NCBI GenBank assembly: GCA_019828565.1
Contig: JAHDYR010000007.1
Span: 231,600-295,599 of the forward strand
From: Carpediemonas membranifera BICM
Lineage: Eukaryota > Protista > Fornicata
Length of the DNA stretch: 64,000 bases
Reading direction: 5' to 3'
A program made the translations under genes and the position numbers. Below, in pieces: positions 1-50,816 of the stretch (its first letter is position 1; the number at the start of each line of letters is the position of its first letter). Under the pieces are notes generated by a model. The model was not told the origin of the DNA and searched no databases. It saw nothing but the letters and a program-made list of their open reading frames with translations.

Positions 1-17
1 ATCTAGGCGTAGGCATC

Positions 18-3441: not shown

Positions 3442-3473
3442 CAAAAAATAAACTCAAAAACTCAAAAACTCAA
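3442..3473 (+). repeat. 3' tail of LINE 1, A-rich (AAAAACTC)n
   Basis: caaaaaataaactcaaaaactcaaaaactcaa directly before target DNA. Confidence 0.75.
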
Positions 3474-5860: not shown

Positions 5861-5873
5861 GTTGATGGGAATA

Positions 5874-9821: not shown

Positions 9822-9850
9822 TGACGGGAACTGAACATCTGTGGCAAGGG

Positions 9851-10758: not shown

Positions 10759-10943
10759 TGTTCTCGCGAACGGAGACAACAAAGGCAAAGCTGGCGAAGA
10801 GTGATTTAAAATTCGACACAAGGGTGTCGAATTTGACCGGGCGAGACCAAATCACAGGAGCGAATCAACCCCGGGGAATTACATATTGCATATGTAACAC
10901 GTAAACACCCCGGGCAACAGCTCGATACTCCTCGCTTATAACA
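10759..10943 (-). repeat. Gypsy A 3' LTR
   Basis: Direct repeat of 18875-19059. Confidence 0.95.
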
Positions 10944-19956: not shown

Positions 19957-21600
19957 CTCCTCAGAAGATATTGGTCTTGCCCCACCGGTAGCCCGCGTGT
20001 TGTTAGAGACCTTCTTTGCCGCTCTTCAGGAGAAGCTCGGTGAGCTCGGGGTTCAGCGGAATCATGGGATTCTGAGGGCTCAACTGCTGCTGTAGTCGTC
20101 TGAGGGCCAACCTTCCTCCCTCGCAGGTGTCGGAGAAGTACTGGAGCTGGCCTAGGATCCTTAGTGCTTCGTCGGCATCGACTGAGCCTCTTTGCAGAGC
20201 CTGTACTATCTTTGCCTCGTACTTCTCCGCCTTCGTAACGTCCAGTGAGATGAGGTTGGCTGTCGCAGAGCGTCTATGATGAGACCGAGGTACGATAGGC
20301 GAGTTGTTGGGCTGAGGACAGACTTCTCCATGTTGACGATTATGCCCATTCTCCGGAGGAGGAGCAGCATGGGCCTGACCTGGCTCTGAAGGTGATACCG
20401 ACTCTGGCAGTGAATGAGGAGGTCGTCGAGATATACGACCACCATCACATTGAACTGCGAGGCAATCACCTTCGCCACCTGCACCATCGTTGTCTGGAAG
20501 ACGAAAGGGGCGGGGCGCCACCCAAAGGGCAGGGCGCGAAACATGTAAGCGGCGCCTGGGACAACGATGCCCAGCAGTTTCTGGTCTGCCTCCCGTATCG
20601 GCAACTGATGGCAACCGGACTTGAGATCTAGCTTGATCATCCAGCTGTCGGGGGCAAGTGATGATACGGCCCTCCGCACTCCGTAGAGGCGGAATGTCCT
20701 GTTCTCCTGTGAGACTGTATTGAGGCGCCTGAGATCGTGGATGGGGCGAACATCCTCCAGCCCCTTCGGCACGACAAAGAGGGGTGCGGCATGCTGTAGA
20801 GTCTCCCTCGACACACGTTGGAGTACCCCGGATTGCTGAAGCTTGTGGATCTGCTCCATCACATGTGGACCGACCCGGGTCTTGATGATCGGCAGAGACT
20901 GGCGGTCTGACGCACGTACGTCTATCGGAACTCCGTGTCTCACCCACTCCACGACTTCTGATGAGACACCCAGCTGCTCCCATAGCTGGGCGTCTCCTAT
21001 TGTTGGGAATTGTTGTTGCCGCTGGGGCGGCGAAACCCCCGGCCCGACTGGCTGCCTTGACTGTTCTGGCTCTGAATGCTGTGGTGCACTCTCTTGAGTT
21101 TCTTCTTAGCCTGCCCCCTCATGTCCACCTCGACCTGCAACGACTTGGCCCGGATGTCTTCGAGGTTTGAGAAGTTCGCCATATTTCTCTTGAGAGCCGC
21201 CTCCATGTAAGTGGCAGTGGAGTGCTCGTATACATCCTTGCAGCGTAGGACTTCGAAGCGTGTAGCCACAGCAATCATGATCTCGTCCACGTCTGTAAGA
21301 GCACCGAGCGCCATCTTCTGGTACAGCTCACGAAGGAACTTAGCTTCATCAGCGAGACCATGACCCTTGGGCATGTCCCAATAGCCGTCGAACGTAGCGT
21401 CGCGCATCACATCTAGCTCCTCCTGGAGCTCGGCGTTCTTCTCTTCCGCCTGCTTGAGTGAGAGGCGCATAGCACTGAGCTCCTTGCTCAGATCAGCCTT
21501 AAATGCCTCGAGTTGTTCGGCCACGGCCTCGTTCATGAGCACTGACGTCTCGACACCATTGTGTCGAATTTGGACGGATACATAGCCTAAATAAAATCTG
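19366..21600 (-). mobile_element. DIRS-like retrotransposon, family c, internally deleted (RH/MT and YR N-terminus missing)
   Basis: gag 20997-21536 (DEAKFLRE) and RT 20003-20990 (IHDLR, YLDD) jump at ~20010 into YR 19366-20000 (ARGIE, HSFRKG, GGW, PY). Confidence 0.85.
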
Positions 21601-21639
21601 GTCGGTTGCTTCCGACACACGCCGGAACCTGCCAGCTGC

Positions 21640-23900
21640 GCTCCCTAGCGCCACTTAACTTCGAGCACGAAGCTAGGTACACTAGGACATGATGTGGGGT
21701 ACGAGCACGAAGATCCCCGAGATCCAAGTCCTCGGATGGGCAGTAGGTTGCGTCGGAGTCACAGCTCTGAGGACTATCGGGACTATCTGGCGAATAGTAG
21801 CAGGATCCATCGTCAGTACTCGTCGACCCATCCAGTCCTTGGGCCCCGCTCCCTGCCACACCGAAGTGACGGGACCCCACTCCTGAAGGAGTTGCTCTGT
21901 GATCTGGGAGCTGTCCTCCACGGCAGGTATGCCACGAGAGAGACGATCGGCGGTGATGTTCGTCTCTCCTGGGGTATGCTCCGCCTTGATAACGAGATTT
22001 CTTGTCTTGGCGAGACACTCGAGCTCCTGAAGGAGCCTCATTGCCGCGCCTGGAGCCCGAGCGGAACCATGCTTGTTGATCCATCCTTTTGCAGAAGTAT
22101 TGTCTGTGAAGAGGGTCAAGACCCTGCAGGTGTCGGAAGGCGGAAGGTGCTCGACGGCTCTGACCAGGGCGTACAACTCTCGGACATTGATGGACTCGGC
22201 AGAGATGTCGGGTGGGAATGAGCCTTCCAAGAGCTTGTCCACTGGGGACCCATAGATGATAGCACCCCACCCCCAGTCGGAGGCGTCGGTTGCTACGCAC
22301 AGATCGAGGCTCCAAAAGAAAGAGGGCTGCGAATGGTCGAGTCGGTGAAGAGTCGAGCAGAGTGAGCCAGTCCTCCAACTCGCTTTGGGAATCGTCGTCC
22401 AGCTTGATGGCATGGCCGGGGTTGAAGGTTTGTAGCTTTCGCAGCTTCAGCATGGTGTTGAAGGTGTAAGCGAAGAACCCCAGACGACCGATGATGCTTG
22501 CCCAGTCCTTGGCAGTGACAACCTTCGTGGCTAAGGCATTGGTGATTATCTCTCGATACTTGACTGCCTTGTCCTCTGGGAGACTGTGTCGAGAATCACA
22601 CCGAGGTACTGCATTGACTGCACGGGAGTAAGGCAGGACTTTTCCAAGTTTGGGATGATGCCTAATAGCTGTAGTGTACGTATGATCTCGGGGCCGACTT
22701 GACTCAGGTGAGCAGCGCTGGCGTGGGCAAAGATGAAGTCGTCTAGGTAGACAGACACTTTGACGCTGAACCTTAGTGCTAAGATCCTTGCAGCCTGGAT
22801 CATGACGAGCTGGAAATAGTAAGGCGCGGCTGTCCAACCGAACGAGAGACCTGTGTAGTGGTAATCCTGGCCATTGGGTAGCACGACCCCCAGCAGCGGA
22901 GCATCGGATGGTCGAACACCGAGCTGGTGATAGCCGTCGCTTAGGTCGACCTTGATCATGTAGTCTCCATGCTCGAGCAGTCCAACTGCACGCCGCACTC
23001 CGAACAGGCGGAAGACCGAGCGGTTTCTGGTCTTGGCGTTGAGGCACCTGAGGTCGTGGATAACCCGAATGTCTTCCGGACCTTTTGGCACAGAGAACAA
23101 TGGCGCTGAGTGACAGAGCTGACCTATGGAGGACTTGACGAGAGCGCCGGATGCGAGCTGGAGCTTGATCTTGGCTAAGATCTTGCGATCGATGCGAGCT
23201 TGCGGACGTGGAGGAGGTGGCTTGCCAGTGAGATGTATCGGCACGCCGTGACGGAGGAGAGCAACAACCTCTGCAGAGGCCTTGAAACTTTTCCAGACAT
23301 ACCACCTTGCGTTCATAGATGGGAGCCTGTGAGTTACTGGTTGAGACGACGGCGCTCTCTCTGGCCCCCACGCTGGTAGTTTGGGCGGCGCATAGTACCC
23401 TTGACCTTGGCTTTTGCGACCAGGCGATCGACTGAGGCACGGCTCTTGGGCGGTGAGGAGTTGAAGAGGTTCTTACAACGCTCGGCTGTGGCGTCATCCC
23501 AAGAGTCCTTGAGCTGTAGGAGCTGTTGGCGCGCATAGATCTTGATTCGTATGGCTGGTATTGAGGACAAACGGCCAGCAACGAGGTCTCTTTCGAGCGT
23601 ATATAGCCAGCGAGCCTCATCGCGGAGACCGAAGCGTGACGGGAGGCTTGTGAGAGCTTCGAATGGGTTGAAGAAGTCGATGTCGTCTTCAAGGTGGTCG
23701 TTGTCCTGAGATTGGGGTTCCTCTTCGCTCTCTTGCGGGTTGTCGTCTTCTTCGCCTTCGTCGCAGGCGATCTGGCCGTTGAGGCGATCAGTAAGTGCCT
23801 GCACTTGTTCTTGGAGTGTCTTGAGTGCTTCTGGAGTGACCGCGGCTGCATCTGCCTGCGGATCACTCATTCTCTCTACTCTGCAATAGTCCTGATTTGT
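21640..23900 (-). mobile_element. DIRS-like retrotransposon, family d, 3'-truncated (no YR)
   Basis: gag 23334-23870 (RDEARWL), RT 22546-23316, RH 21682-22413 (TDASDWGWG, ADRLSRG), frameshifted. Confidence 0.85.
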
Positions 23901-24588: not shown

Positions 24589-24690
24589 TGTTGGTTCATC
24601 AATAGATTATTTAATAGTCTTGAGTCGTCCAGCTCGACACATGGGTGTCGAGCTCTATTCTTTGTAAAGCTTTGTTCTCACGAACCCACA
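24589..24690 (+). repeat. Gypsy C 5' LTR
   Basis: Direct repeat of 39118-39219. Confidence 0.95.
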
Positions 24691-28642: not shown

Positions 28643-29207
28643 CAAGTCCACCAATGTTTTCAGCTAAGTGTTCTCACTTACAACAGGGGTGGATGAAGAC
28701 CAACAGGCCTGTACTAGAATAGATAGAACAGTGCCCCATCGAGCTCAAAAGGAGCGACTATGGCCCCTGTCCAACGAACCAGAAGGTTACATTCAGGGTG
28801 CACCGCCGGTTATGAGTGGGAGCTCCATAGCCACAGGGACTAGAGAACGAACAATATGGAGCTTAGATTTACAGGGAAAGAGACGGAGAGCGCAGGGAAG
28901 GATGTCGGAGCATCGATGGAATGGAATTTTCGCCAGCTCAGAGGGAAGGAAGGATCACCGGCGAACAACAGCAGGGGGCCCAGATAGAGGCCGCGAACAC
29001 ACTACGAATGGCGTAACAACGGCCAAAATCCAGGGACGGTGTGGCATGAAAATGGCGATGCATTTTTAGAACCGCGCCATTTCGCCGCGAGCCCCAAAAC
29101 AAACGATCAGGGAAAAATGAGAAAACAGGGAGGTCCGTGCGGGGACAGTACCTGCGCAGGGCCATGCTGACCGATTTTCGCGTCGATGCATTTGCCAAGC
29201 TTTTTTC

Positions 29208-32200
29208 ATGCAGGGAAAAGAGAACAACCAGATGAGAGTGGAGATACCAGATAAGATCAGGGAATCCGCTCAAAAAGAGTGGGACACGATTAGAGAGCTA
29301 CTAACGGACTACTTGATGGAAGAGAAGGGCACCAGAACGCTACTACTGCGTCGCGCAGAAGATTTTTCAGGGAGATCGTTCGGAGCTAGCTCCAGAGCAC
29401 GAAAAGAGGTGATACTGAATGCGAGGAGAGTGCTACGTGCCGCAGGGATCACCAACAACAGAGACGAGATCCTCCGTAACCCCAACGGAATCCTAGGGCT
29501 TCGAGACATCTTCTACGCAATGACAGAGGCCTTAGACCCGAGAGAGGACGAAGAACGGCGCCTAGCAGAGGCCAAGGAGAACGTCACCATCCAACCAGGG
29601 CACAGGGACATGAGCAAGTGGCCTTCCGACCACAAGATCGAAGAGGCCATCCTCCAACCGAGAGAACAGAGCAACATCGAGTGGGACAGTGAGAGAGACA
29701 GCATTGAGGGCAGAGAGACGGGCACATTCACGCTCACATCAGGGTATGGAGATGAGAAAGCCGTCGAGGCCATCGCAGGAGAGGAGGTGTGGGACCCCAC
29801 TAACCAGGGCCTGGTCACCAGGATCGCTATGGAGCAGGACGATGGCACCTACAAGGTCCTCATCGACATCAGAGATTGCAGAGCATGGCAGATCACCAGA
29901 TTCATGGAGGAAGGCAGGGACATCCTCAGGTTGCAGGCCCCGGAGGCGCCGGCGGTCTGGCAGGCAGCTTGGTGCAAGACAGGAGTCAACACGGAGGGCA
30001 GAGGCGCAATAAGGGCACAAGGACAGGAGACGCCGCTCAGCAACAAGCTCGTCTTCTCTGACGTCAGGGCCAGGGTGATCAATGCCACCAGCCGCCGCCA
30101 AAAGAGGGACAGGGAAGAAGAGTCAGACAACGAGAGCGGCGCACAGACCAGCCAAGAGGAAGACCCCAAACCCAAGGTCGTGTTGACACAAGCGGAAGGA
30201 GTGAGCGCCAGAAGGGGCCTTGGAGCCGAGCTTGATCAGCAGGAAGAAGAGAGCATACCCCGAGCATCAGAGGGAAGTGCATCAGCAGGGAGCCTACCGG
30301 AGGCATTGCAGAGTCAGGGTCAGAAGAAGCTCATCCTCGGTTCTATCGACTTCGAGTGTGGAGATCCTGGGAGTGAGAGGGCAGGGATCAGTGCGGTGCC
30401 GACAGAGGGGGGCTCGTGCTAGTGGACGTCGAGACGGGGGAGGTCGTTGGCCATGGCCACGGCCTCTTCTATGAGCCCAACCTGCCGGCCAACAAGGTGG
30501 ACCAGAGCAGATACGCGACGTGGGCAGTGACGGGGATTCCCCCAGCGACGTTCGTGGAAGTGGACACAGGGGAGGTGCCGATGGACTATCAGCAGCACTT
30601 CAGCAGATTTAGAGAGTGGGCCACGCGGCTCGCAGCCAAGCTGAGAGACAGAGAGACCAGGGAGAACTGGAAGCTAGTCCTTCATGCCAAGGGCGTCCAC
30701 ATGGAGAAGTTCCTCCCTGACGAACGAGGTCAACGGGCTCAACAGGGACACCAGGGACTTCTTTAGAATGAGGCTGGTGGACGATAGCGAGCTGGCCGAC
30801 GCCATCGAGGAGCTCGCCCCGGATAAGGCAAGAGAGTACAGGGCAAACTACGAGATCAAGAACTACAGGGAGATGGCAGATATATGGGCCAGCCAATGGC
30901 AGCGCAGGGAGCTCCCGAAGGGGGCCTGTCCGTACCACAGGCACACTGCAGGGTGCTACCATTGTGCGCTGGCAGATGCAACGTTGTTCGCGGCGAAGGT
31001 GTGGGGCATGATGCTGAAGAAGATGAGCACGCCGGATCTGGAGAGTGCGATGGGTAACGCTTTCAACAGCATGCATGACACGGTCAGGGACGCAGGGATC
31101 AGAGACGACCTCTGCGGAGGCAACGGAGTAGCGTACAGGCGTGAGACCTTCAACATCTTCGGAGGGCACCCGTACGGCAACAGCAGGGACCTAAGCAGGG
31201 AAGAGGGCGACCGCATCCTAGTGGTCCCGGACAACGATCACTGCTATGGGATCGGCTTCGGATTCAGCGAGGTCATTAAGGGTATGAAGGGCATCTATTG
31301 GCCCCAACCACGGTCATGGAGAGAGGAGTCATCACGAGAGTCCCCATATGGTCGATCCATGAGAACACGACCCACATTCAGAGACTGATGTTGCAGGGAA
31401 GAGCTGGCAGGGCAGTTACTAGGGACGAGGACATCGTCACCATCGCGATGGTCTACAGCTGGTGGCCCTCAAGGGAGGATACTGCTCATCAGGGTCAGCC
31501 GGGAGTCCACGACCTGGCAGAGAGCGTCAGACGCGAGGAGAAAGCCATAGCGAACGTCAGGGCACCCCCAGGGTATAGCGCAACCATCAGAGCGGCCTTC
31601 ATCCCGAGAGACTGGGGCTGTATCAGGGTCAGAGAGGCAGGGACGACACTGGGACGGATGAAGAAGGTGGGGACCCGTATGGTGTCCACGACCATCCCGC
31701 CAGAGGATAACTGCAAGATCACCCAGAGGCCGACGGTTAAGTACATCCCGTCAAGAGATGGAAAGGAGGAGAGACCCTACACGGTCGATTACTCAGACAT
31801 GGGCATAGAGGGATCTATCAGACGGCTCACCGAGATGATTGGCACGCCGGTCGGGCCAGTAGGCCGAGATGACCTCTATACCAACAACCGCCGAGCCGAC
31901 GGAACCCTCAGAGACGAGAGAGAGCCCAGAAACAACGGCGTCCATCGGTGCGACAGAGAGCGCAGGGACGTCAGGCCTCATCATGAGGACAGAGAGCGCA
32001 GGGACGACGGGCCTCGCCGCGAGGTCAGAGGACGCTGGGAAGACGGGCCTCACCATGAGGACAGAGAGCGCAGGGACGATCAGGGCAGAGACTCCGGAGA
32101 GAGCAGACGCCGCTCACCCCCTCATGGGACCGGCAAGAGGAGTGGCAAGGACAGGGCGGTGAGCTACACAGGGGCTGGAAAGAGGGGCAAGCTCGACGGC

Positions 32201-32584
32201 GACGCCCGTTACGAGGCTGGAAGCAGACAGTCGAGTGACAGCGACGCGGAGAGGGACGAACTCAGGAAGGAACTTGATGAAGCCAAGAAGCTGATTCTCG
32301 CACTCAGGGCCAGGGACAGCAGGGGAGGAGGAGCAGGCGACGCCAACCCCAGCACCGGCTGACACCCAGGGAAACCAGGGTACCGGCAAGGAGCACAGGG
32401 TAGTCCGCCACAAGAAGAGGACTCGGACAAAGAGGTCTCGCAAGCCGAGACAGCTAAACCAGATGGAGCTAGTGGCCCAGATCGTGTCAACGGTGATGAA
32501 GACCATGCAGCAACAACAGGGGATGGCAACCGAGAACCAGAGCGATGATGGCAGTGACAGTGGCAACTCAACGGAGACCGATTA
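29208..32584 (+). pseudogene. LINE 2 ORF1 (~1100 aa when frameshifts are joined) with a Maelstrom-like DEDDh/Zn nuclease domain, R/D/E-rich repeats and a short coiled coil
   Basis: ORFs 29208-30422, 30416-30766, 30684-31388, 31298-32362 and a final frame ending TAA at 32584; motifs IDFE, PTEG, TGIP, AKG..ME, CPYH....HCALAD. Confidence 0.75.
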
Positions 32585-32649
32585 AGCAGGGTAAAGTGGT
32601 ATTCTTTGAGAGTGATAGTGACAGTTGTGAGTTCTTTTCTTTTAATCCA

Positions 32650-32750
32650 ACCCTGGCTCCCACCCAGGGTCCGGCATTAGCTGAAATGCACTGCCGGTGG
32701 GCTGTGGCGGCAGCCAAAGGGGGGTCACGCCAATGCGCCCCCTCCTAAGT
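32650..32750 (+). ncRNA. Conserved structured RNA element in the LINE 2 inter-ORF region
   Basis: Aligns with 50563-50666 (minus strand) with compensatory base changes in two stems. Confidence 0.7.
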
Positions 32751-32902
32751 ATCCCTGCCCGAAGGTAAGGATGGTCACCAGGGTAACCCATAGTTGGCCC
32801 GCCATGGGTAACCGGAGCCGGCACGAAGGCCCCGTGACGGGACAAGGGCAGATTGCAGGGAATTTCCGAAAATTCGCAGGATAGGAAAGACGGAGTACAA
32901 GA

Positions 32903-35900
32903 ATGGAAACGATCAAGATAGCGAGCCTGAACACTGAGGGACACATCGGGAAGGGAAAGGACTTCACGGCCTCAATGGCAACGGCTATAAGGATGAAACT
33001 GAGCGACACAGATGCAGTATGCATCCAAGAAACGTGGAGGACGGCGAATACGAGGGTACACAACTTCATAGACTTCGACTACGCAATGGCAGGGAAGGAA
33101 ACAGAGGAGGAGCTAGCTATGGACAACGAGAGGAGGAAGAAAGAAGCCCAAAGCCAGCGCCGAATAGATGCCCAGCTGGGCATAGCAGGGAGCAGTAGCC
33201 GGACGCCCAGGACGAGGGGTACTAGAGAAGGAGTGGGCACAATCATCAACCCAAGAGCAAGAGGGAGCTGGGACGTAGGCATCACAGATAGCTTATCAGG
33301 GAGGATACAGGTGAGCATACTCAGAACCCATAGGGACATCCTGGTGATCAACGTGTATGGCCCACCGGTCGGCCACGGAAGGGAGGAGAAGGACGAGTTC
33401 AGGGACGGAATAAGGAGCATTATGGAGATGAAAGGAGAGATGGAAACAATCATCATAGGGGACTGGAACCTCGACCCCAAAAGGATAGCCACAATGGCAA
33501 GATGGAAGGACCTGATCAGGGACTATAAGCTGGGAGCAGTGATCCCCATGGAAGGTACCCTCACCAAGGGAACTACCACTCCGGACTTCGCGCTGGTATC
33601 ATCAGGGATCAGAGGAGCAAGGATAGAAGTACTGGATGCTAGTCGACTCGGAGTCTGGGGGTCAGCCCACAACATGATAAGACTGGAATGGAGGGAACAA
33701 CGGATCCAACGGACTACAAAGAGAGAGGAAGTCCTAGACATACCGGGCGTCAGAGTGTGGAACATGAGGAAGAAGGCTGAACGCACATCAGTCAGAAGAC
33801 TGCACCGTTTTAAGAGCCTGGATGAGTGGGAGGAGGATATCAGGAAGGATATGGGCGAGCCGTCAGGTCACCCAGGCAGTGGAGACAGGGAAGAGGTCAT
33901 CAAAGAAAAGGTGTGGTCGGAACTCCGGCACACACCATGGACAGAAGAGGGAAACAAGACCAGAAGTGAGATCATGAAGCGTGAGCTACAGGCCTTCTGG
34001 GGAAAACGCAGGGAAGAGTGGATCCAGGACCTCAGCCGGAGCGCGAAGGAAGGATACAAAGCATCCAGGTCCATGGTGGAAGCAGCGGTAAGAAGATGGT
34101 GGTGTGAAAACCAGTTCAAGGGCATGCCAGAGAGCATACTGAAGGACGGGAAGATTACCACCAACAAGGAAGAAATAGGTAAGATCCTCCTACAACAGTA
34201 TGCAGGAGTGAGCAGGGGCAGGGAACCGGAGTGGAAGGATAGAGGCAATGGAAAGAGGGAGGACGAATTTAAGGAGAGAGAAATACGAGAAGCGATCAGA
34301 AGGACAAAGAGGGACACTGCACCGGGACCGGACCACACTACAGGGGACATGCTCAGGGACACAGATGACCAGGGGATCGCTCAGATAACTAGGCTCATGA
34401 ACAGGGTATACAGGGAGGGCAAGATCCCGACAACATGGAAGTATGCTACAGTCTCGGCCATCCACAAGACAGGGAAGCCCAGAGTGAAGCCGGAGTCGTA
34501 CAGACCCATCTCGCTAACACCACTACTGTATAGGGTGTATGGTAGGCTCCTGAAGAGAAGATTAGAAGCAGCCACATGGCACCTCATCCCAAGAGAGCAA
34601 GCAGGGTTCCAATCGGATAAGGACGTAATACAACAGATACAATACATCGTGCAGAGACACCAGGAAGGGGGGGAGACCACGTCGATCTTCCTAGACATAG
34701 AGAAAGCCTATGACACCGTCCCGAGGGACATCCTCATGGATAAGCTGCAGGGAATGGGGGTCGAAGACCACCTCATCAGGGCAATACAGAGTACACTAGA
34801 AGAGACATGGATCTCGGTGAAGGGGGCAGGGTCATGGGAGAGAACAAACAGGGGAGTGAAGCAAGGATGTGTCCTAGCGCCGACCCTGTTCGTTTTGTTC
34901 ATGGCAAACTGGCCTCACCTGGTCAGGAAGAAGCATCAGGGACAAGAGTACGATATCAGGGAACCACCAACGGAGTTACCAAGAGTCCGGGACACGCTGC
35001 CGGCCACCCTAACCATGTTCGTGGACGATACAGCGGTCACAGGGGAGAACACCGGAAAAGAGTAAGATAGTGGCGAACCTAGTCATAGAAGTTATCAAGG
35101 AGCACCTCATGAGGGCAAATGCACAAAAGAGTGAGATGATCAGTGTAGACAGGGCAGCAGTGGCGAGAGTGGGGGAGTTACCCTAATGGCAAAAGAGGAA
35201 GCTAAGTACCTAGGTCTCTGGATAGCCAGCGGAAAAGACCCACTGGCAGCCTGTATCAGAAAGAAGCGGGAGCAGAGCGAAAGGTACAAGAAGCTAGTGA
35301 GAAGAGTGGGATGGACCAGAGGCAACATGCCGGCGCTAGCCAGCAGGCTCCTCCTCGAAGTTTACATATGGCCGAGGATAATGTTTGGAGTGGAGGTGTG
35401 GGGCTACGCAGCAGGGGGGAACAAGATATGGACGGATTGGCAGGGCATCATGGCCGGAACAGGCCCAGGTGGGGGCTCGGTCATGCGCATCTTGAACGGA
35501 TGGATGGACCTGCAAGCCCACCTGGAGATGCTAGCAGTCAAGAGGATCGTGACAAGCAGGGGCCAGGATATACCAATCAGAGACAGGGTCTGGAAGGAGG
35601 GATCGATTATGTGGAAAGCCAGGGACTCAGTGAACGCACTCCTCAGAGGAACAAGAGAGGGAGCAACGAATGCAGGGAAGATAGACTTTGGTAGGGAGAT
35701 GGTAAGAATGAACTGGACCAGGAGGTGCAAGAGCAAGACAGCGGTGGGGCTCATGGAAGTCCTAGGACCCAAACGTATGGGAAAGTGCATGGCGGGGAAA
35801 CCGGCCATAAGTAGGAAGACAGGGAAGTGGCAGTCAAGGGCAGAGTGGAAAAGGATAGTGTCGGTGGCAGCGAATGTCAGCCCGTCTCCATCATCAGCGG

Positions 35901-36353
35901 AAAGGGGAGAAGGCCCAGAGCGAGCGCTGGCGGACCTGGCGATGGGTGAGGAACTCAAACACAAGATACAAAGGAGGTGCCCCCTGTGCACAAAGGAGAG
36001 CGAGATAGAGTTACTGTGGCAAATAGCGAGAGAGCAGCCAAACCAAGCCAGGAAGCAGGCACTAATCAGGGGAGTGGGTAAGGGGTCAGCCGCTGGGATC
36101 GGCGGCCCACATTATGTGTGAGTGCCCAGAGGTTGAAAGAGGAGATGACTGGGAAAAGATATGGAAGACAGCTAAGGAGAGGACCAGGGAATTGCAAGTC
36201 AGAAGAGGCCCGAATGGGAGGTGGTATGAGAAGAGGCCAATCTTAGAGGTGCAACAACTAGTGTTAACAGGGTCGGAAGAGATATGGGAAGGACTGCGAG
36301 CTGGGCTGAGAGCCCTGGCAAAGGTCTATGATAGCTATAGAATAGATGGATAG
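32903..36353 (+). pseudogene. LINE 2 ORF2: APE endonuclease-RT-Zn finger (frameshifts ~35060 and ~36110)
   Basis: SLNTEG, CIQET, NVYGP, GDWN, PDF, SAH; APGPD, YRPISL, LDIEKAYD, GVKQG, FVDD; CPLC...H..C. Confidence 0.92.
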
Positions 36354-37230
36354 ATAAGGAACACCACATCCAGAAAGGGGGCAGGGAAGCATAGACTCTG
36401 GGATCAAGGGGAGACCCCCATGTTTCCCAGGGAGAGGGCAGGGCCAGGGACAGAGGAAATCCATCAATTGGATGGTTGCACCACTCGCGGTGAACCTAAG
36501 GAAACTGCAGGGACTGAGCATGGGATACGGGGGGACATGACGTCCCCGCCGCCCTTGTGAACGATAGAGGGACGCTGGGAAGTGTAGCACAAGAGAACTA
36601 TCATAAGGGGTACTAGGCCTTGCAGATCTAGAGTCTGTGTTAGCCCTAGCCCACGCCGCCTAACAGGGGTAGATGAGAGGGACTTAGTTGCTTTCCCCGC
36701 CCACGGGTAGGCCACTTAACAGGGTCGTGGGGGCACTGAACAGGGAATCTGGAAAGAGGAGAGGGTGCCATGCTTGAACGACCCCGTAGGGACTGCAGGG
36801 AATCAGGGAGTGCTATAGAGAAGGTCTTGCAGGACAAACCTGCCTGTGGAAGCACCGAGGACAGACCCCCAGGCTCCCTGGAAGCTGCCGGGTTTACAGG
36901 GAGACAGGAAAGCGCTCAGCGCACGGAGATGGCGAAGGCCTATGGGGGGAAGTGAAATCGGGAGTGAGCGGAAGCAGTAGCACCGAATCGCTCGTTGGAC
37001 GCAGCTGACAAGTTCAATCGCAGGGAGGAGGCAGCGCCCCGGGGAACTCGGCTCCAGTAATAAGGGAGATCAGCCTAAGTAACCGGGGCCCGATACCAGG
37101 CACCATAAATTTTCTTTCTTTCTTTCTTCGGAAGATACGTGGGAGCCGTACCAGAACGTTAAGGGATGCGAAGCGTTGGATATATATCTGGGGAAGGCCG
37201 AATAAATGGCCCCCAAGCATCAGAAACTGT

Positions 37231-41778: not shown

Positions 41779-44512
41779 GGGGGACGTCCTCCAAGTCTTC
41801 GTTACACGCTGTACCTCGGCCGAGGCATTGACCCGGACAGGATCGCTGCCCTTGAGGAGCTCACGGTCCCCCAGACCGTCACGGAGTTGCGCCGGATCGT
41901 CGGGAAATTCAACTACCTGCGGTCATTCATCCCCTTTAGCGCAACGCTGATGGAGCCCCTCACCCGACTCATGACCGGTGCGAAAAACGCCCGTCTCACG
42001 TGGACCGCCGAGCAAGACGCCGCGCTGGAGGCCCTGAAAGCCACCGTTGCCAAGCACATCGAACTCACACACCCCGACACGTCACTCCCCTGGGAGGTCT
42101 ACACCGACGCGAGTGACTACGGCATTGGTGGCGTTATTTTCCAACTCAAGGACAGCAAGCGCCAGATCCTCACGTTTGTCAGCAAGAAGCTGACCGGACC
42201 GCAGACCCGATGGACGAAGTACGAGAAGGAGCTCTACGCTATCCTTTATACACTCACGCGGCCGGAGTTCTCCGCCATCTTGCGATTGAAGCAGGACTGG
42301 AAGGTCTTCACAGATCACCGGAACCTCACCTACTTGTTCCGCAAGTCAGCCTCGAATGCGAAGATCGCGCGATGGAAGATGATCCTGAGCGACTACAACC
42401 CCACGATCGTCCACGTCGAAGGCGCCTCGAACGTCATCGCAGACACCCTCTCCCGCGCCCTCCCTCAGACTAGCGCAGAGGTCTCCGCCCTGGACGACAG
42501 TCACCAGCAGGTCCTACAAGATGCCCATAATGACGCCGTCGGCCACCATGGCATCCGGCGAACCGTGCAGGCCATCCGTGCTGGTGGACACAGCTGGACG
42601 GGCATGCAGCCGGACGTCAAGGCGTTCATCCGAGCGTGCCCCACATGCCAGCTGAGACACACCGCTGATACAGACGTCCCATACCATAGCACTCAGCCCA
42701 CCAACCCGTTCGAGGTCGTCTTTATCGACACACTCGGGCCGCTTCCTGAGTCGGCCGACGGGTTAAAATACATCATCGCAGCAGTAGATGGCTTCAGCAA
42801 GCACGTCTCACTATTTCCGGCACACACTACGAATGCTGCGAGCGCCGCGAAGAGCATTTACCAGTTCTGCGGCCGTTTTGGCGTCCCGAGCTCCATCCAG
42901 ACCGACCACGGCCCACAATACGACAACAAGCTCGTTGCCGAGCTGACGAAGAGGCTCACGCTTAACCACCGCCTCTCAGTTCCATACAGGCCGCAAGCCA
43001 ATGGCATAGTAGAGCGAATGAACGCAGAGATCGCTAAGCATCTCACACCCCTGCTCAACCACGGCGACTGGGTCGAACTACTTCCCCAAGTCGAGCTCAT
43101 CATCAACAACACCGCATCATCGACGACGGGACGCACTCCACTCAATATCCTCTTCCCTCACCTCGAGCACACGCACTACGAGGCCAGAAAGGGGGACTTG
43201 ACGGGCATACTGCACGCGGTGCGCGACAACATCGCTCAATACACCACAGCAGCCAAGCGCAAAGCGCCCCAGGACTACTGGGCACCCCAGGCTGGCTCCC
43301 TCGTCCTACTCAAGCGAACAAAGTACAGCAAACTCCAACGGCCTTACCGCGGGCCCTTCAAGGTCCGCGGCCCAGGCGCTGTCTCGAACACCACGACGAT
43401 TGAGGCCTTAGCTGACCCCGAGGCCGCCATGACAGTCGCCACCCATCGCCTGAAGCCATTCATCCGCGGCACGCTCAGCGACGCCGAACTACTCCAACTC
43501 CAAGCCGAGGGCGAGGACGAGTACGTCGTCGAAAATATTGTGGACGTGTTCAAGACACGCCGCGGGTTCAAAATGAAAGTCCATTGGCTCGGCTATGAGA
43601 GCGCAGAAGACAGCGACATCCTGCTCAACAAGGCTAATTCACGTCTCGAGGCCCTTGACTCATACCTCGAGTCGCATCCGTCAGAAGCTTCACAGACACT
43701 CACATACATCAAGAACAAAGCTGGCAGTAGAATGCATATAAAGCCGCCTAAAACTCACTAATCAACACACCATAGGCCCCAAAGGCACCTCAATTCAACT
43801 CCCCAACAAGCATCACACCAAAACCTCACTTACCCTCTTCACAAACACCCCCGCGAAGACAAGAAAGCAAATGCAATCGACGCGAACCATCTCCACACTC
43901 ACTTATTTACGACAATAGTACAAGTCGCAGCAACAAGGAAGCCGCGCAAGGCTCATCTCCACATTTTCGGCAGATTTCTACCGAAAAGCCGAATATTTCG
44001 GCCCCCACAGGCCATGACAGGCGCAGAATGCAGAGACTTACTCATCAACCCATGGCCCAACTCCAGCAGAAGACTCATCCGAAACTATGATCAAGACCCC
44101 CTCATCACTTGAGCCCCCGCGCAACAGCACACCACTGGGACGCAGCTGGAGCCAACCACTCCTACCACAGGTCCTACCCACTACAGCAAGTCATATGCCC
44201 CGACCTTCAAATTTCCGAGCGTCATCGCCCTTCATCCCGTTCTCATCAACTGATCATACCTTAACCTGCATCGGACTTCTGACATCACATCAAGCGCTGA
44301 CGCACTGGGAGGGGTAGTGTCAGGACCTGACGGCCCTGGTGACCACTCCGGGCTCGGCCTTTCATTTACATGTTACATATCATGATGTTAACACATATCA
44401 TGATATATTTAGCCGATCCGATTTGGTCTCCCCCGGCCCGCGGCAGGGCCGTATCGTATCGTAAATACTTTCACCTCACTTTTTTCTAGCACCGCCCCAA
44501 AGGCCCGGCACA
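41779..44512 (+). mobile_element. Gypsy G, 5'-truncated: RT end-RH-IN-chromodomain, PPT and putative 3' LTR 44318-44512
   Basis: ORF to 43761 with TDAS, HHCC, IDTLG, TDHG, ANGIVER, YVVENIV...VHWLGY; PPT gggaggggtag followed by TG. Confidence 0.85.
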
Positions 44513-44645
44513 CTGTGGTGGTCATAGACCACACTAATCATTTATACAGTTTAAGCCATTTATTGGCACAAGGGTTTTCTCTTCTTCTTTCCCTGTAAAA
44601 GCATTCTCCGCATTAGCGAGGCACATTAACGTTAATTCCCCTCAA

Positions 44646-47600
44646 ATGCTGAAGAAATCCGATCCCCCGTTGCTGAAGTCGCCAGATCTGAACGAACTGT
44701 TCATCTTTGTGGACAAGTTCAACGATTACCGCGCCTTAGGGGGCAAGCGAGACATTGAGAAGCTAATCGACAGCGAGGTTCGGGAGATGGTGACAGCAAT
44801 CCTACCAGCGGACGATCTTGACGACGCGGAGGAAGAGATCTCTCTCCTCCTTAATCAACATCATCGTGCCGCTCGCTCCAGAGCCCAGAAGGACCTCAAG
44901 ATCATCAAGCGCCTAGGACGCGCTCTCAGACCTACTCAAGAAGTCAACAAGCTCCGTCTCTTTAGAATCACCGCCAAGGACTTCTCCCCTATCGAAGTTG
45001 CTCGAGTCAACAAGAAGTTCCGTATTACCATGGCAGTCGTCCAACCCGAGTTCCCCCTCGAGACACTACGCGACATATACGTTCGTTGTTTCAAGTTCGG
45101 ATCCAACCAGACGATGTACCGCATCAAGGAGGTGATCCAGGACATGTCGCTAGAAGATGCCATGCCGCGCGTTCTAGCCCTATCCAGAACAGTCCAAGAG
45201 AGCACCGCGATCGCCAACGCGTTCCAGGACAAGCCGTCCAACGCCGAGCACCACCACACGAGCCGTAACTCCCACCGACGCAACGATCGCAAGCCTCAGT
45301 CACGTCCCACCGAAGACCGTTCGCATGCTATCAGACCTGAACACGCGTCGACTAAGCCTATCGACAAGAAGGGCAGACGTGATCATTCACAGTTCACTTG
45401 CTATAACTGTGGTGGTAAGGGTCACGCCGTCTACGAGTGTAAGAAGCCCAAGAACAAGTGTCAGAAGTGCGGGAAGAGCGGACACCTTGACAGGTTCTGT
45501 AAATCCCCACAGTACTTGTCCTTGTTCTCGATGACTTCACACAAACGCAAAGATAGCCTACCTCTGTGCAAAGTTAAGGTCGAGGGTCGAGACGTCGTTG
45601 CCTTGATTGATTCGGGAGCCAACTGCTCCACTATATCCCCCAAGCTGACCAAGGGTATGACGCGTATATCAGATGAAGAGCGAAGCGTGCGTACAGCCAA
45701 GGGAACTATACAGTCCCAAGGTTCCGTGCAAGGGAACATCAAACTCATGCCGTCAGCCTTTACACCTAAGGCAGTGTCCTTCAAGCCGGAGTTGATTGTG
45801 CTAGATACTGAGTTCGACGTCGTCCTGGGGTACCCCCACCTTGTCGAGCTGGGAATCCTCCCCGACGTGAACGTAGAGTCAGGGGAATACTCGGACGAAG
45901 TCCAGGTCCCCGAAGCTTTCAAGCACAACGCTGCCATTTTTAGTCTATCCGACCAGTCGACCAAGAGTCAAGCCGAACTGATCAAGAGGTTCTCCGATCT
46001 ATTCCAAGACCGGGACGAACCTAGCAGGCTAGAGCCGTACGACCTCGTTCTGAAGGACGATCGGGTCGTGAACGCCAGACCTTACTATGTACCCCCAGCG
46101 AAGATACACGTCGTGAGAGAGCACATCGACACGCTGCTAGCCAAGAAATATATCGAGGCCTGCCAGTCACAATACGCTTCCCCAGCTATGACTGTGCCTA
46201 AGAAGGGAGGCAAGTCGCGTTTCGTAGTCGATTTCCGCCGTATTAACGAGCTTACTGAGCCGTTCGACTACCCCATCCCTCGTATCGACGAGGTGCTGTC
46301 ACAGCTCGCAGGACAGAAGATCTTCGCGACTCTAGACCTGTCGTCCGGGTACCACCAGATCCCTTTGACAGAACGATCAAGACCCCTGACTGCATTTACC
46401 ACCGTACTAGGGCAGTATCAATACCGACGGATGCCTTTCGGGCTGCGCAACGCAGGAGCTCACTTCCAGAAGGCCATGGAGCGCGCCTTCGCCGGGCTCG
46501 TGGGCAGCTCATGTTACATTTACATCGACGATATTATTGTCTTCGGCAGCGACGAGGCCGAATATCTCGCGAACCTCGAAAGAGTCCTGGACCGTGCGCG
46601 TAAGGTCAAGCTCCAGCTCAATCGCGAGAAATGCCAATTCGGCAGGCAGGAGGTCGAGTTCTTAGGTTGGGTTGTCAATGATGGGCAGGTGAGCATCGCA
46701 CCCAGCCGTGTAGACGACATCGCAAATCTCCAGATGCCGACATCCATCAAGGGCATGCAGGGCCTAGTAGGATTCCTCAACTATTTCCGGGATCACATCC
46801 CCCATTTTGCGGAAATCGGACACCCGTTAATCAAAGCTATGTCCGGTCACACAAGTCTCGGCCTGACCGCCCAGCAGGAGGCCCTCGATAAGCTCAAGCA
46901 GAGCCTTACCTCCGCTGACGCCCTAGCAATTTTCGACGCCACGAAGGAGCATTCTATAATGACCGACGCCTCGGGAGTGGGGTACGGCGCAGTCCTATTG
47001 CAAGAGGGCAAGCCTGTCTGTTACATGTCGAAGGCCTTCAACGCCACACAGTCTCGTTGGTCAACGATTGAGAAGGAGGCGTACGCCATTGTGGCGGCCT
47101 TGCAGCGCTGGCGCAAGTTCCTTGCCTGGGGACCTTTCTCCATACTCACTGACCACCGAAACCTTACCTTCATGTACCGTAGCATCAACCCGAAAGTCAG
47201 GAGGTGGGCCGATGCCATTTCCGACTTGGACTTTGAGATTAAGCACGTCGCCGGCCTGGACAATGGAGCCGCAGATGGTCTGTCCCGTGTGTTTACTATG
47301 TTCACTCGCAAAGCTACGACCGATGAGATTGAAGAAGCACACACCACCGCCGGCGCCCATCTATCTCGACGACTAACGACCGAGAAGCTTAGAGCCGAAG
47401 GGTTGTCGGTGTCGAGAGCCGCAGTCGACCAGGTGATTGCAGCTTGCCCGGTGTGCCAAGTCCTCGAGAGACCCCACGTCGATACACCGGATGGTCTGCA
47501 TACCGCCGTTGATGAACCGTTTAAGCGAGTAGCCATCGACACCTTAGGTCCGTTCCCCAAGTCGCAGGGGTTCACGCACATCTCCGTCATCATAGATATG

Positions 47601-48581
47601 TGTAGTAGGTGGACCGAGTTGGTTCCAGTTACAGGTACGACTGCGCAAGCCGCAGTTACGGCGTTCGTTAATAACTGGGTCTTACGCTATGGCTGCCCCG
47701 AGGTCTTACAGACTGACGGCGGGCCCGAGTTTAACAATCAGCTCATGAAGTCCCTGGCCGACGAGATGGGTTTCCACACCCATGTTACGACTCCACATCA
47801 CCCGCAATCTAATGGCATCGTCGAACGGGCCAACAGTGGAGTTCTCAAAATCTTGAAGGCCAGAAAGTTCCATTTCCGGGACGCGGACTGGGTCAAGCAC
47901 TTACCTGTCGCACAATTTATCGTCAATTCGACGCCCAGGATACCCACTCACCTCTCACCATCCGAGATCATACTAGGTGTCAACATCAGGATCTCGAACG
48001 AGATCATCATCTGCACCCACTCGACTAGCGCCAGAATACAGGACAGACGCGCGGCGGCTGGCCAAGCCATCCAGCTAGCGAAGGCTAGAATTCAGGCAAT
48101 GAGAGAGGACGCTCTCGCAAACGCCGCATCGTCACGTCAGGAGTTACTGTGCCGGTTCGTGTTGGTCAAGTACCCAGCCAGACCTCCCAACAAGCTGATG
48201 CCAGGATGGCGAGGGCCCATGCGACGGGTCAGTGCGGTTAAGCAAGATGGCGTGACGGTCGCCTATGAAGTTCAGGACCTCAACCAGGGAAGCCAAGGCA
48301 AGATATTGAAGGTCGACGCCTCGCGCGTACGCAGATTTAACCCTGGCAATCTATCCGAGCGAGAGATCAAGGACTTGGCCGCCACGGCGAACGATGAGTG
48401 GGAAGTGGACCGTATTTCCAAATCGCGAGGGAACGGAACACGAACCAAACGCGAATACCGCGTTCACTGGTCTGGTTTCGAGGACGAGGAGGCGACATGG
48501 CAGGATTGGGACTCCGTCAAGGACCTGGAAGCATTAGATATATATTTGAAGTCTGACCAAGCCAAACTGGACGGTCTATAA
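44646..48581 (+). CDS. Gypsy D gag-pol polyprotein (2x CCHC, PR, RT, RH, IN, chromodomain)
   Basis: CYNCGGKGH, IDSGA, LDLSSGY, YIDD, TDAS, IDTLG, TDGG, SNGIVER, WEVDRI...VHWSGF. Confidence 0.96.
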   Translation: MLKKSDPPLLKSPDLNELFIFVDKFNDYRALGGKRDIEKLIDSEVREMVTAILPADDLDDAEEEISLLLNQHHRAARSRAQKDLKIIKRLGRALRPTQEVNKLRLFRITAKDFSPIEVARVNKKFRITMAVVQPEFPLETLRDIYVRCFKFGSNQTMYRIKEVIQDMSLEDAMPRVLALSRTVQESTAIANAFQDKPSNAEHHHTSRNSHRRNDRKPQSRPTEDRSHAIRPEHASTKPIDKKGRRDHSQFTCYNCGGKGHAVYECKKPKNKCQKCGKSGHLDRFCKSPQYLSLFSMTSHKRKDSLPLCKVKVEGRDVVALIDSGANCSTISPKLTKGMTRISDEERSVRTAKGTIQSQGSVQGNIKLMPSAFTPKAVSFKPELIVLDTEFDVVLGYPHLVELGILPDVNVESGEYSDEVQVPEAFKHNAAIFSLSDQSTKSQAELIKRFSDLFQDRDEPSRLEPYDLVLKDDRVVNARPYYVPPAKIHVVREHIDTLLAKKYIEACQSQYASPAMTVPKKGGKSRFVVDFRRINELTEPFDYPIPRIDEVLSQLAGQKIFATLDLSSGYHQIPLTERSRPLTAFTTVLGQYQYRRMPFGLRNAGAHFQKAMERAFAGLVGSSCYIYIDDIIVFGSDEAEYLANLERVLDRARKVKLQLNREKCQFGRQEVEFLGWVVNDGQVSIAPSRVDDIANLQMPTSIKGMQGLVGFLNYFRDHIPHFAEIGHPLIKAMSGHTSLGLTAQQEALDKLKQSLTSADALAIFDATKEHSIMTDASGVGYGAVLLQEGKPVCYMSKAFNATQSRWSTIEKEAYAIVAALQRWRKFLAWGPFSILTDHRNLTFMYRSINPKVRRWADAISDLDFEIKHVAGLDNGAADGLSRVFTMFTRKATTDEIEEAHTTAGAHLSRRLTTEKLRAEGLSVSRAAVDQVIAACPVCQVLERPHVDTPDGLHTAVDEPFKRVAIDTLGPFPKSQGFTHISVIIDMCSRWTELVPVTGTTAQAAVTAFVNNWVLRYGCPEVLQTDGGPEFNNQLMKSLADEMGFHTHVTTPHHPQSNGIVERANSGVLKILKARKFHFRDADWVKHLPVAQFIVNSTPRIPTHLSPSEIILGVNIRISNEIIICTHSTSARIQDRRAAAGQAIQLAKARIQAMREDALANAASSRQELLCRFVLVKYPARPPNKLMPGWRGPMRRVSAVKQDGVTVAYEVQDLNQGSQGKILKVDASRVRRFNPGNLSEREIKDLAATANDEWEVDRISKSRGNGTRTKREYRVHWSGFEDEEATWQDWDSVKDLEALDIYLKSDQAKLDGL

Positions 48582-48623
48582 ATCTTCACCACATCTAATC
48601 GCTCCAGCGTCAAGTCATCAGAT

Positions 48624-49704
48624 TTATTCGTCGTCCGACTCCTCGGTATCGGTCAGCTCGACCAACCAAGACGCGTCAGCGTGGCGCTCAAGATCGTGCT
48701 CAGCAAGATAGTCGCGCACACAACGGACGAGACAGAGATCGGCGTTCAGCCAGACGATGCTGAGGCCAGAGTAACCCTCATACTGGAGTATGAGAGCGAA
48801 GGTCCCAGGTCCACGAGTCGTTTTGAGGAATTCATGACGGACAACACACGTCACGGTGTAGTAACGGTCCGGGTCCGAGACCTGAATAGGCTCCCAGTGG
48901 ACCTCGTCACCGATCGCAGGCAGGTGACCCTCGCGACACAGCTCGTCGACCAGGGTCGCCCAGAAGGCGCTGGGAGCTGAGATGCAGCGGCTGATCCCGA
49001 AGAGTGCCACTCGGAAGTAATCGGGCGAGAGGACGAGGATCAGCAGGCGGTTGAGGTATCCGCGAGCCGTGGTATCCGACGTGACACCGGCAGCAGCGCG
49101 AACTGCGGCCACGAGCCCGGCAGAGTAGCGCCCACTACCGGTCAGGCTGATGTCGCCACTCCGGAGGGCTGCTGAGACGATATCGCCATCAGTGAGCGTC
49201 GGGCACAGCTTGATCTTGAGGTGGGTCACCACCCCAGCGAGAGCGAACTGGCAGTAAGCCACGAGGTTAAGAATCTGGCGAGACTTCTTAACATCGGTGA
49301 CTACCGCGGCGTCGTGGAGGCGACCCTGCTCAATGGCGTCGAAGATACGCTGAAGAGGCATTTCAATCGAGTTGCTGTAGCCATTCAGGCGCCGGGAGAC
49401 CTCAGCTCTGATGTCGCGGGGAAGATTCATAGATGCCGTCACGGGTCGAGTAACACGCTCTGCGGCTTGTACACGGTGCCTGGATGAGTGGTTGATTGAT
49501 ATTTGTTACTTACAGGTTACCGGAGGCCAAGCGCTTGCGCTGAGTACGTGTTTGAGCACGAAGAGAACGACAGACGGCGGAATGAGCGGAAACAAGAGGC
49601 TTAGTGAGTTCCTCGTCACCAATTTCGGCGATTTTAGCGCGAATAGTATCCAGAATTGCTTCTACGGCGGCGTTGTCCGACATCAACTGAGTTGACGGCG
49701 ACAT
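48624..49704 (-). CDS. Antisense two-exon gene of Gypsy D (exons 49704-49514 and 49479-48624; 348 aa), C-terminal chromo-like domain
   Basis: A 34-nt GTAAGT...CAG intron at 49480-49513 joins the two ORFs in frame (GNL^HRVQA); homologous to 53937-55041. Confidence 0.85.
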
Positions 49705-50553
49705 ATTCTGCACTTTTGGAACAATCGGTTTCAGGACGAAACCTAGAGCAGTAATAGGACGCCAAATCAAGCTAATTCATCTATTTACTAAGCGCTGTAG
49801 CCTATTAGCTCCATCGGAAGCCGATTGATGTTGTTAATGAAGTACGAGCGCGCCAGGAAAAATGAAAGGCCCAAAACTCGCCAACGAAGGCCTTTTGGAG
49901 CCTCTTTATGCCTTTTTCGGCGTCTGCGTAAGTTTCAGCGCAAATGGTACAGTACTTCTTCTTATTCTTCTAGACGCCGAGATCAACCCTCGAATTACTT
50001 AGAAGCATGCGTAACACGTAATATTTTTCGAGACACGGCCATATGAGGCCGTGGAGGGGCAGGGATAAGCCTCTATGAATACGGGTGAACCCTAGCCGTC
50101 CGTTTGACTGTCATTGACGTTGGTAAGTTCGGACCCTATATGCGGTTCATGAGGGCGGTGAAGCCCTGGTAAGACTATCTTAACACGTAACATAGCAATT
50201 GCTTACACAGTGGATCCACGTTATCATACACAGCTGTCGGGTTTTATTCCCATGTCACCGTTGGTGATACCATAATTCCGTATCGGAAGACCGCGGGTCG
50301 GGCGTTGCCCACTCCACTGCCAATGGAGTAGACCGTTGCATAGCTTGGGTGGCACCAAACTATAACACGGATGACCCTAGGCCAACCTAACCCCCGTAAC
50401 TCGTTGAGTGTCATGCCTATTACCCAGGCATGGAGGGGCAGTGTGGTGGTCATAGACCACACTAATCATTTATACAGTTTAAGCCATTTATTGGCACAAG
50501 GGTTTTCTCTTCTTCTTTCCCTGTAAAAGCATTCTCCGCATTAGCGAGGCACA

Positions 50554-50816
50554 GTTTGATTGACTTAGGAGGGGGCGCTTTGGCGTGACCCCCCCTTTGG
50601 CTGTCGCTGCAGCCCACTGGCAGTGCCCTTCTTGGCTAATGCCAGGTCCTGGGTGGGAGCCAGGATTGTGTTTGTAAAAGAATCTGATAATTTTCTGTTG
50701 TTGAAGAAGAATCTGTTTACCTGCTTACCCCACTCAGTCCTCCTCCTTGTCCTCCACATCCTCATCGCTGTCCTCTGAGTCCAGTAGCTTGATCAGCTTC
50801 TTGATCCTCTTGAGAG
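50554..50816 (-). mobile_element. Remnant of a third LINE (acidic ORF1 C-terminus plus inter-ORF RNA structure)
   Basis: ...LLDSEDSDEDVEDKEED* followed by a close homologue of 32650-32750. Confidence 0.6.

Follow-up and report, generated by a model that had tools for sequence, protein, structure and literature searches.

The locus

The window (the whole 64,000-nt stretch of DNA that we analysed, with positions counted from its first nucleotide) is a nest of retrotransposons, and its protein matches name Carpediemonas membranifera, a fornicate. One of the retrotransposons, which we call LINE A, is an APE-type two-ORF LINE with an ORF1, an endonuclease-reverse transcriptase ORF2, and a simple-repeat 3' end (Table 1). 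ORF2 is broken, as it has a stop at 35063 and a frame change further on; it matches P0001, which is named as an endonuclease/exonuclease/phosphatase protein, at 58%. The ORF1 gene models of other copies of this element (P0019 and P0020) finish in the same acidic tail, and the end of the paralogue P0032 is alike. The ORF2 gene models of other copies begin at the same methionine as the ATG at 32903. P0020 and a model of the ORF2 start (P0002) are consecutive gene models on one contig.

The spacer between ORF1 and ORF2 is 317 nt long and contains a structured RNA motif (copy A), which ends 153 nt before the AUG of ORF2. Four other AUGs precede that of ORF2, two within the fold (32686 and 32733) and two after it (32771 and 32804), and a TAG at 32882 is in frame with the ATG at 32903. 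The linker between a GTAAA box and the fold is 44% T, as compared to 9-13% for the flanking ORFs. A first-pass annotation of this DNA had described an AAGCAGG(G)TAAA box, acidic ORF ends, a U-rich linker, and the ATG of ORF2, and all of these are present.

Table 1. Features of the two loci that carry the fold, and candidate poly(A) sites, by position in the window
Feature	Position	Strand	Comment
LINE ORF1	29121..32585	+	several frame breaks; helix and acidic tail at end; TAA at 32583-32585
DEDDh/Maelstrom-like nuclease domain (predicted)	30333..31025	+	approximate limits, mapped from P0032
GTAAA box	32591..32595	+	likely poly(A) signal; doubles as 5' splice site; 6 nt past ORF1 stop
U-rich linker	32596..32650	+	unstructured; predicted cleavage zone
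H1	32651..32669	+	6-bp stem; invariant 7-nt loop CUCCCAC; one double change
H2	32671..32697	+	6-bp stem with one double change; invariant 3x2 internal loop
H3	32700..32715	+	5-bp stem; 6-nt variable loop
H4	32719..32750	+	G-run/C-run stem, UCA bulge, 3-bp hairpin, invariant tail UCCUAAGU
Remaining spacer	32751..32902	+	more hairpins; single copy, comparison with copy B impossible
LINE ORF2	32903..36353	+	endonuclease-like N-terminus, reverse transcriptase
Likely LINE 3' end	37105..37128	+	ATAAA, then short (CTTT)n run
gypsy 3' LTR	50439..50553	+	starts 10 nt past the fold, cutting copy B off
Copy B of fold	50563..50666	-	aligns with copy A
Copy B box and linker	50667..50727	-	TAAGCAGGTAAA, GTAAA at 50720; pyrimidine-rich linker
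Residual acidic ORF end	50734..50814	-	precedes copy B; 5' part may be LTR
RTAAA sites in LTRs	44514-44625, 53220-53341, 24589-24690, 50790-50916, 44318-44510
RTAAA sites outside LTRs	37105; 48624, 55041

The region of LINE A after ORF2 is unusually long (36354-37128 (+), about 770 nt, ending in (CTTT)n). Near each end of LINE A (at 28868-28881 and 36893-36897) lies the word TTTACAGGGA, which on the minus strand reads CCCTGTAAA, as it does in an LTR. A search for a target-site duplication of LINE A found none. A second LINE ORF2, at 1-3099 (+), is very divergent (27-35% to that of LINE A), and its upstream spacer lies beyond the window. P0018 and P0019 are fragments of LINE ORF1, and their public annotations are "Splicing factor U2AF" and "transcription coactivator CAPER". 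Elsewhere in the window, several related RT-bearing elements (3462-10104 (-) and 20003-23866 (-)) have no integrase match, and the LTRs at 53220-53341, 10759-10943, and 24589-24690 are very short (100-185 nt), with a perfect hairpin whose arms are TCGACAC and GTGTCGA.

A predicted nuclease domain in ORF1

ORF1 has 13 relatives at an E threshold of 0.001, of which 7 are C. membranifera gene models and 6 are from other contigs. The motif D-x-E...E...C-P-x-H...H-C-x-L-x-D is conserved among these relatives, and the domain is borne by the ORF1 proteins P0020, P0021, P0023, P0025, P0029, P0030, and P0032. The domain had no match in Pfam; a search of the ESM Atlas with ORF1 gave no usable match; and a sequence comparison to the PDB gave coiled-coil noise only. 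The structural model of P0032 has a mean pLDDT of 52.7, with mostly 70-94 in the domain. This model resembles the domains of MAEL (Z = 11.0, 10.3, and 10.2; best rmsd 4.0 with 190 residues aligned), and Foldseek gave matches to the DnaQ family (E of about 0.003). The model indicates a DnaQ-like fold for ORF1, of a DEDDh/Maelstrom-like kind, in which D-x-E and the zinc residues (Cys-His-Cys) are present. We leave the subfamily there because 3'hExo (Z = 10.2) ties with MAEL to within 1 Z unit. Maelstrom is a protein of the piRNA pathway. DEDDy nucleases are described in rotifer LTR and Penelope-like elements (PMC5408684; here and below, papers are cited for those portions of their text that were available to us). 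A limited survey of the literature found no DEDD-type nuclease as the ORF1 of a LINE.

Two copies of an RNA fold

We confirmed the positions of the two copies, 32650-32750 (+) for copy A and 50563-50666 (-) for copy B. In a self-blastn of the window, they are 83% identical over 120 nt (E = 9e-27), and blastn found no other non-LTR pair of this kind in the stretch. The first-pass annotation held that the copies align closely while their flanks mostly do not, and we agree: in a register-preserving alignment the motif is 86% identical, versus about 54% for the flanks. Specifically, the final 80 nt of the ORFs ahead of the box are 54% identical (54 of 500 shuffles were equally high), and the linkers are also 54% identical (0 of 500 shuffles, which is partly due to composition). 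H1 lies 68 nt from the TAA of the box in copy A and 62 nt from it in copy B. The block that is common to both copies is 165 nt long and has TAAG at both ends.

The fold comprises four helices in series, H1 to H4, followed by the tail UCCUAAGU, and all 27 predicted pairs are kept in both copies. H2 is topped by an upper stem of 2-3 bp and an apical loop that varies between the copies. H3 and H4 correspond to a stem closing a variable loop and a G-run/C-run stem before UCCUAAGU, both of which had been noticed at first pass. The register of the G-run/C-run stem is ambiguous, and in both copies the G-run could instead form an 8-bp helix with H1.

The fold is real and conserved, and it belongs to no catalogued family. 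None of the 4,227 Rfam families reached its gathering score in the window. Even with E values up to 10, our two runs gave just 1 and 4 weak and unrelated matches (best E = 1.4), so no family matched. Nor is the motif a known SINE or ncRNA that was inserted at both sites, as we found no tRNA or Rfam head and no A-tail after the fold.

Covariation and stability

Within the fold, copies A and B differ by 12 substitutions. Eight of these are at unpaired positions, and the other four form two double changes from C-G to U-A, one in H1 and one in H2, in keeping with the compensatory changes that the first-pass annotation saw in its stems 1 and 2. Such a pattern arose in 0.08% of 200,000 trials with randomly scattered substitutions (P = 0.0008), which is a post hoc value as the two sequences tested had also served to derive the structure. 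A shuffle control has no power in an alignment of two sequences (136 of 500). One of the double changes amounts to CpG decay, to TpG/CpA, on each of the strands, and LINE A is CpG-poor (observed/expected 0.63), so that change could be mutational. The covariation is that of n = 2 sequences. The fold is not conserved because of coding, since indels of 2 nt and 1 nt separate the copies.

When the motif is folded alone, the pair probabilities of H1-H4 are 0.88-0.99; that of H2 falls to 0.14 once the entire spacer of copy A is folded. The folding energy is unremarkable for copy A (z = -1.43), moderate for copy B (z = -2.68), and z = 0.24 for the entire spacer.

The first-pass annotation also suggested that the loop CTCCCAC of H1 forms a pseudoknot with a downstream GTGGG (32697-32701). 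This pairing (CCCAC/GUGGG) is possible, but it is invariant and so shows no covariation, it overlaps and competes with H2 and H3 (the first two G's of H3 lie within GUGGG), and a 5-bp partner for the H1 loop arises in 27-30% of shuffles. A second candidate, UUAG/CUAA, is also invariant and has a chance level of 14-17%.

Searches for further copies

We sought genomic homologues for a larger alignment, as had been suggested at first pass, and found no third copy. A covariance model built from the two copies found only A and B in the window (the next best hit was at 9.7 bits, E = 0.37) and nothing in 33 further loci (best E = 0.11). Pattern scans of metagenome, prokaryote, and viral sequences, which allowed a gap of 8-24 nt, gave no genuine copy; because copy A has a gap of 7 nt and copies of its type were undetectable with the metagenome and prokaryote pattern, this result says nothing about A-type copies elsewhere. 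Twelve metagenome matches to the pattern lacked the H1 stem, and these and 7 genome matches scored at chance. On viral contigs, corrected and alternative patterns gave 0 matches, 14 chance matches, and 0 matches, and protein-led scans gave no copy. With blastn, phages gave 2 records with a 24-nt chance match and plasmids gave none. Reads over the spacer, from a small share of one sequencing run, had some depth and no usable variants.

The context of copy B

Copy B lies in an island of about 250 nt between gypsy LTRs, with no ORF2. The LTR upstream of it spans 50916 to about 50790-50817. The ORF remnant of 26 amino acids that precedes copy B had no match among the ORF1 proteins that we compared, and tblastn found neither a LINE ORF1 nor a LINE ORF2 near copy B. 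The acidic C-terminus of the remnant is not diagnostic, as gypsy elements here have two antisense ORFs with acidic ends as well. Thus, the data bear out a LINE context, of the two that the first-pass annotation described, for copy A only, and we infer a LINE origin for copy B solely from the shared order of stop codon, box, linker, and fold.

The flanks of the LTR pair at 44511-44625 and 50439-50553 carry no target duplication, so the original DNA downstream of copy B is absent from the window. Copy B does not continue past the gypsy element at 44511-50553: the DNA there is another LTR, and no target duplication joins the flanks. These two LTRs are nearly identical, and the lack of a target-site duplication, unlike in other pairs, suggests recombination or a misjoin.

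The antisense ORFs mentioned above are about 295 amino acids long and lie at 48624-49505 (-) and 54136-55041 (+), in two related gypsy elements that are 68% identical. Both are located between pol and the 3' LTR, match no Pfam family, and have an AATAAA over the stop codon.

A candidate poly(A) signal ahead of the fold

What is new here is that the box shared by both copies, just ahead of the fold, is most likely a poly(A) signal of the host, judging from where similar sequences lie. GTAAA is found in 5 of the 6 LTRs that we examined, in the sense orientation and 27-50 nt from the 3' end; the sixth LTR has TAAA. No other 5-mer is shared by as many of the six LTRs within their final 60 nt (5 of 6, while the next best is in 3; the shuffle mean was 0.27 and 0 of 20,000 shuffles were equally high); these LTRs are partly related (for 5 of 15 pairs, at most 2 of 300 shuffles were as high), and the motif was chosen after the box had been seen. 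In the 8,031 nt of the sense strand of LINE A, TAAA occurs three times: within ORF1, in the GTAAA after its stop (the single GTAAA), and in the ATAAA before the 3' tail. Copy B has GTAAA at the equivalent position. GTAAA is insufficient as a signal by itself because the sense coding DNA of the window has it about six times as well, without depletion (7 observed versus 8.9 expected).

Carpediemonas, which is free-living, belongs to the same phylum as Giardia, whose poly(A) signal is WGURAA, with cleavage mostly 13-15 nt downstream and a U bias beyond (PMC9014877, PMC11529991). The putative signal shares with that of Giardia a GUAAA core near stop codons and a U-rich downstream region. In contrast to Giardia, position 1 is T or C in the LTRs and G in both copies of the fold, so that GGTAAA departs from the exact WGURAA, and cleavage is here a prediction. 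The portions of PMC11529991 available to us make no mention of a poly(A) signal in Carpediemonas. More broadly, RTAAA (GTAAA or ATAAA; Table 1) resembles a poly(A) signal of this protist that would bridge WGURAA of Giardia and AAUAAA.

How the fold might serve ORF2

The most likely class of function is that of a putative cis-acting RNA fold that serves the expression of ORF2. The first-pass annotation had proposed an IRES or reinitiation element, or else a ribozyme; a cis-acting role in ORF2 expression remains likely, but because the box is likely a poly(A) signal, the reading moves from an IRES on intact RNA to the protection or launching of a cleaved ORF2 RNA. By analogy, the fold may act like xrRNAs, translation-promoting ribozymes, the giardiavirus IRES, or the RNA structure of SART1, and by its layout it belongs to none of these classes as described.

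We tentatively propose that the fold is a putative barrier that shields the ORF2 RNA from 5'-to-3' exonucleases after a cut behind ORF1. The GTAAA would be recognized, and some transcripts would be cleaved about 13-30 nt past it and receive a poly(A) tail, yielding an mRNA for ORF1 alone. There are 55 nt between the GTAAA box and the fold in copy A, so if the box is used, cleavage would fall in the U-rich linker and the fold would lie 30-45 nt into the downstream piece, which is the position expected of a barrier. That piece would begin with 30-45 nt of U-rich single strand, onto which Xrn2/Xrn1 would load before stalling at H1; the stall would let the polymerase continue, and the uncapped ORF2 RNA would survive and be translated by some cap-independent route. 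A leaky signal (with G at the first position, unlike the T or C of the LTRs) would spare full-length RNA for retrotransposition. What we observed is a conserved fold, where it lies in copy A, and an excess of GTAAA near the 3' ends of LTRs; the steps themselves are inferred. Plain scanning or reinitiation, as other ways to reach ORF2, are improbable given the four upstream AUGs and a spacer of 317 nt behind an ORF1 of about 3.4 kb (PMC3894237).

Viral xrRNAs are intergenic and lie at the 5' ends of coding subgenomic RNAs (PMC6299227). Like those of Tombusviridae and poleroviruses, which are found up to about 135 nt before the start codon (PMC6299227), the fold is compact, intergenic, and, if the transcript is cut, near the 5' end of a coding RNA. 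Class 3 xrRNAs have a coaxial P1/P2 hairpin, a contact between J1/2 and L2B, and an apical loop that pairs with the 3' end (PMC12397905). The fold does not have this layout: H1 has no J1/2, and the apical loop of H2 differs between the copies without a partner that changes along with it. Also unlike class 3 xrRNAs, it is about 100 nt of four serial helices in a nuclear retrotransposon, and its resistance is a prediction. Other points against a barrier are that cutting the transcript costs full-length template, that the model does not explain how ORF2 would be translated from an RNA that lacks a cap and has two AUGs past the fold (32771 and 32804), that the pseudoknot is unsupported, and that GGTAAA could equally be a 5' splice site.

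Alternatively, the fold might draw or hold ribosomes on an intact two-gene RNA, as an IRES or a reinitiation element for ORF2, which we consider unlikely. It does sit between the ORFs, with four AUGs ahead of that of ORF2. How ORF2 is initiated in LINEs is an open question for which IRESs have been proposed (PMC3894237), and the multi-stem IRES of giardiavirus functions in Giardia, another fornicate (PMC2757703). In SART1, a two-ORF APE LINE, UAAUG coupling acts with a downstream RNA structure (PMC3894237). What SART1 and the proposed inter-ORF IRESs of LINEs share with our fold is RNA structure tied to the expression of ORF2; unlike in SART1, the spacer here is 317 nt, the stop and start do not overlap, and the fold follows a likely poly(A) signal. 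Type 6 IGR IRESs have 2-3 pseudoknots and a PKI domain directly before an in-frame, non-AUG first codon (PMC12221177). Our fold shares with these and the giardiavirus IRES several helices and an intergenic or internal position ahead of a second ORF, but it has no supported pseudoknots and no PKI beside a non-AUG start. ORF2 instead starts at an AUG 153 nt downstream with the in-frame TAG between, which argues against a type 6 IRES. Against any IRES, the sequence between the fold and the AUG has no counterpart for comparison, no Rfam family matched, and the conserved GTAAA box is left unexplained.

It is less probable still that the fold is a putative self-cleaving ribozyme of an undescribed class that frees an ORF2 RNA with an Xrn-resistant, translation-competent 5'-OH end. 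The bases of the junctions and internal loops are invariant while the apical loops vary (28 chosen positions are untouched, P = 0.015, post hoc). HDV-like ribozymes are found at the 5' ends of R2, L1Tc, and related non-LTR elements, and small ribozymes in viral UTRs, and self-cleavage at such sites can promote translation (PMC13725137); our fold would likewise be a structured RNA at the head of the RT-coding RNA and may aid its translation. Our fold differs from the HDV-like ribozymes of retrotransposons in being internal, after ORF1, and it has neither their topology nor their core.

HDV-like ribozymes form a nested double pseudoknot, P1-P2-P3-L3(UYC)-P1.1-P4-J4/2 C. Our HDV descriptor had 0 matches on the sense strand of either copy, and its 4 loose matches are on the antisense strand of copy A only and use sequence from outside the shared fold. 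In twister ribozymes, the L4 loop UCCYAAGY is closed by P4, along with P1/P2 and T1/T2; UCCUAAGU at the 3' end of our fold is not closed by a stem, even if circular permutation is considered. The hammerhead core (CUGANGA) and the cores of the hairpin ribozyme (AGAA plus AGAAACA) are absent from both copies. These sense-strand results, obtained with descriptors of the known cores, bear out the first-pass opinion that the fold does not fit the HDV, hammerhead, or twister consensus. No Rfam ribozyme matched at E = 10 (twister included), and the candidate tertiary pairings do not covary.

More doubtful again is that the fold controls processing of the spacer, by tuning the poly(A) site or by hiding the 3' splice site of an intron of 77 nt (A) or 72 nt (B) that would run from the GTAAA to a CAG within H1. 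Both copies can be read as AG/GTAAA ... pyrimidine tract ... CCCAG/G (slashes mark the splice sites), and either copy could form the alternative helix between H1 and the G-run. But splicing would not join ORF1 to ORF2, as the stop codon is upstream; the intron would be lost upon retrotransposition; and H2-H4 would be superfluous. The portions of PMC8516963 and PMC1201135 available to us gave no usable intron consensus for the host.

Least probable is that proteins of the element bind the fold or use it for packaging, or that it is a small element or ncRNA in its own right, which sits within a LINE in the case of copy A and somewhere else in that of copy B. In favor of these readings, the Maelstrom-like domain predicted in ORF1 could bind structured RNA, no LINE ORF was found near copy B, and TAAG is repeated around the shared block. 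Against them, the order and spacing of stop, box, linker, and fold are the same at both loci, the linkers differ far more than the folds do, which a recent insertion would not show, and there is no tRNA or Rfam match and no A-tail.

Implications

The means by which two-ORF LINEs produce their ORF2 protein have long been in question (PMC3894237). A narrow survey of the literature, which took xrRNAs and retrotransposons separately, found no description of an exonuclease-blocking or self-cleaving fold in the spacer of a LINE, and the available portions of PMC12397905 (on xrRNAs) and PMC12221177 (on type 6 IRESs) mention retrotransposons 0 times. The spacer of LINE A, with a likely poly(A) signal and then an unclassified fold of about 100 nt, is a compact candidate answer from an unexplored lineage. 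If the fold blocks exonucleases, as in the barrier that we tentatively favor, or if it self-cleaves, then it would be a new class of RNA. We rate as somewhat unlikely a scenario in which a lineage of LINEs carries its own poly(A) site for dividing its transcript, with a structured RNA of a new class, be it barrier or ribozyme, saving the part that encodes ORF2. If true, this would be a third route to ORF2, besides reinitiation and IRESs, in the same lineage whose ORF1 has a predicted Maelstrom-like nuclease domain.
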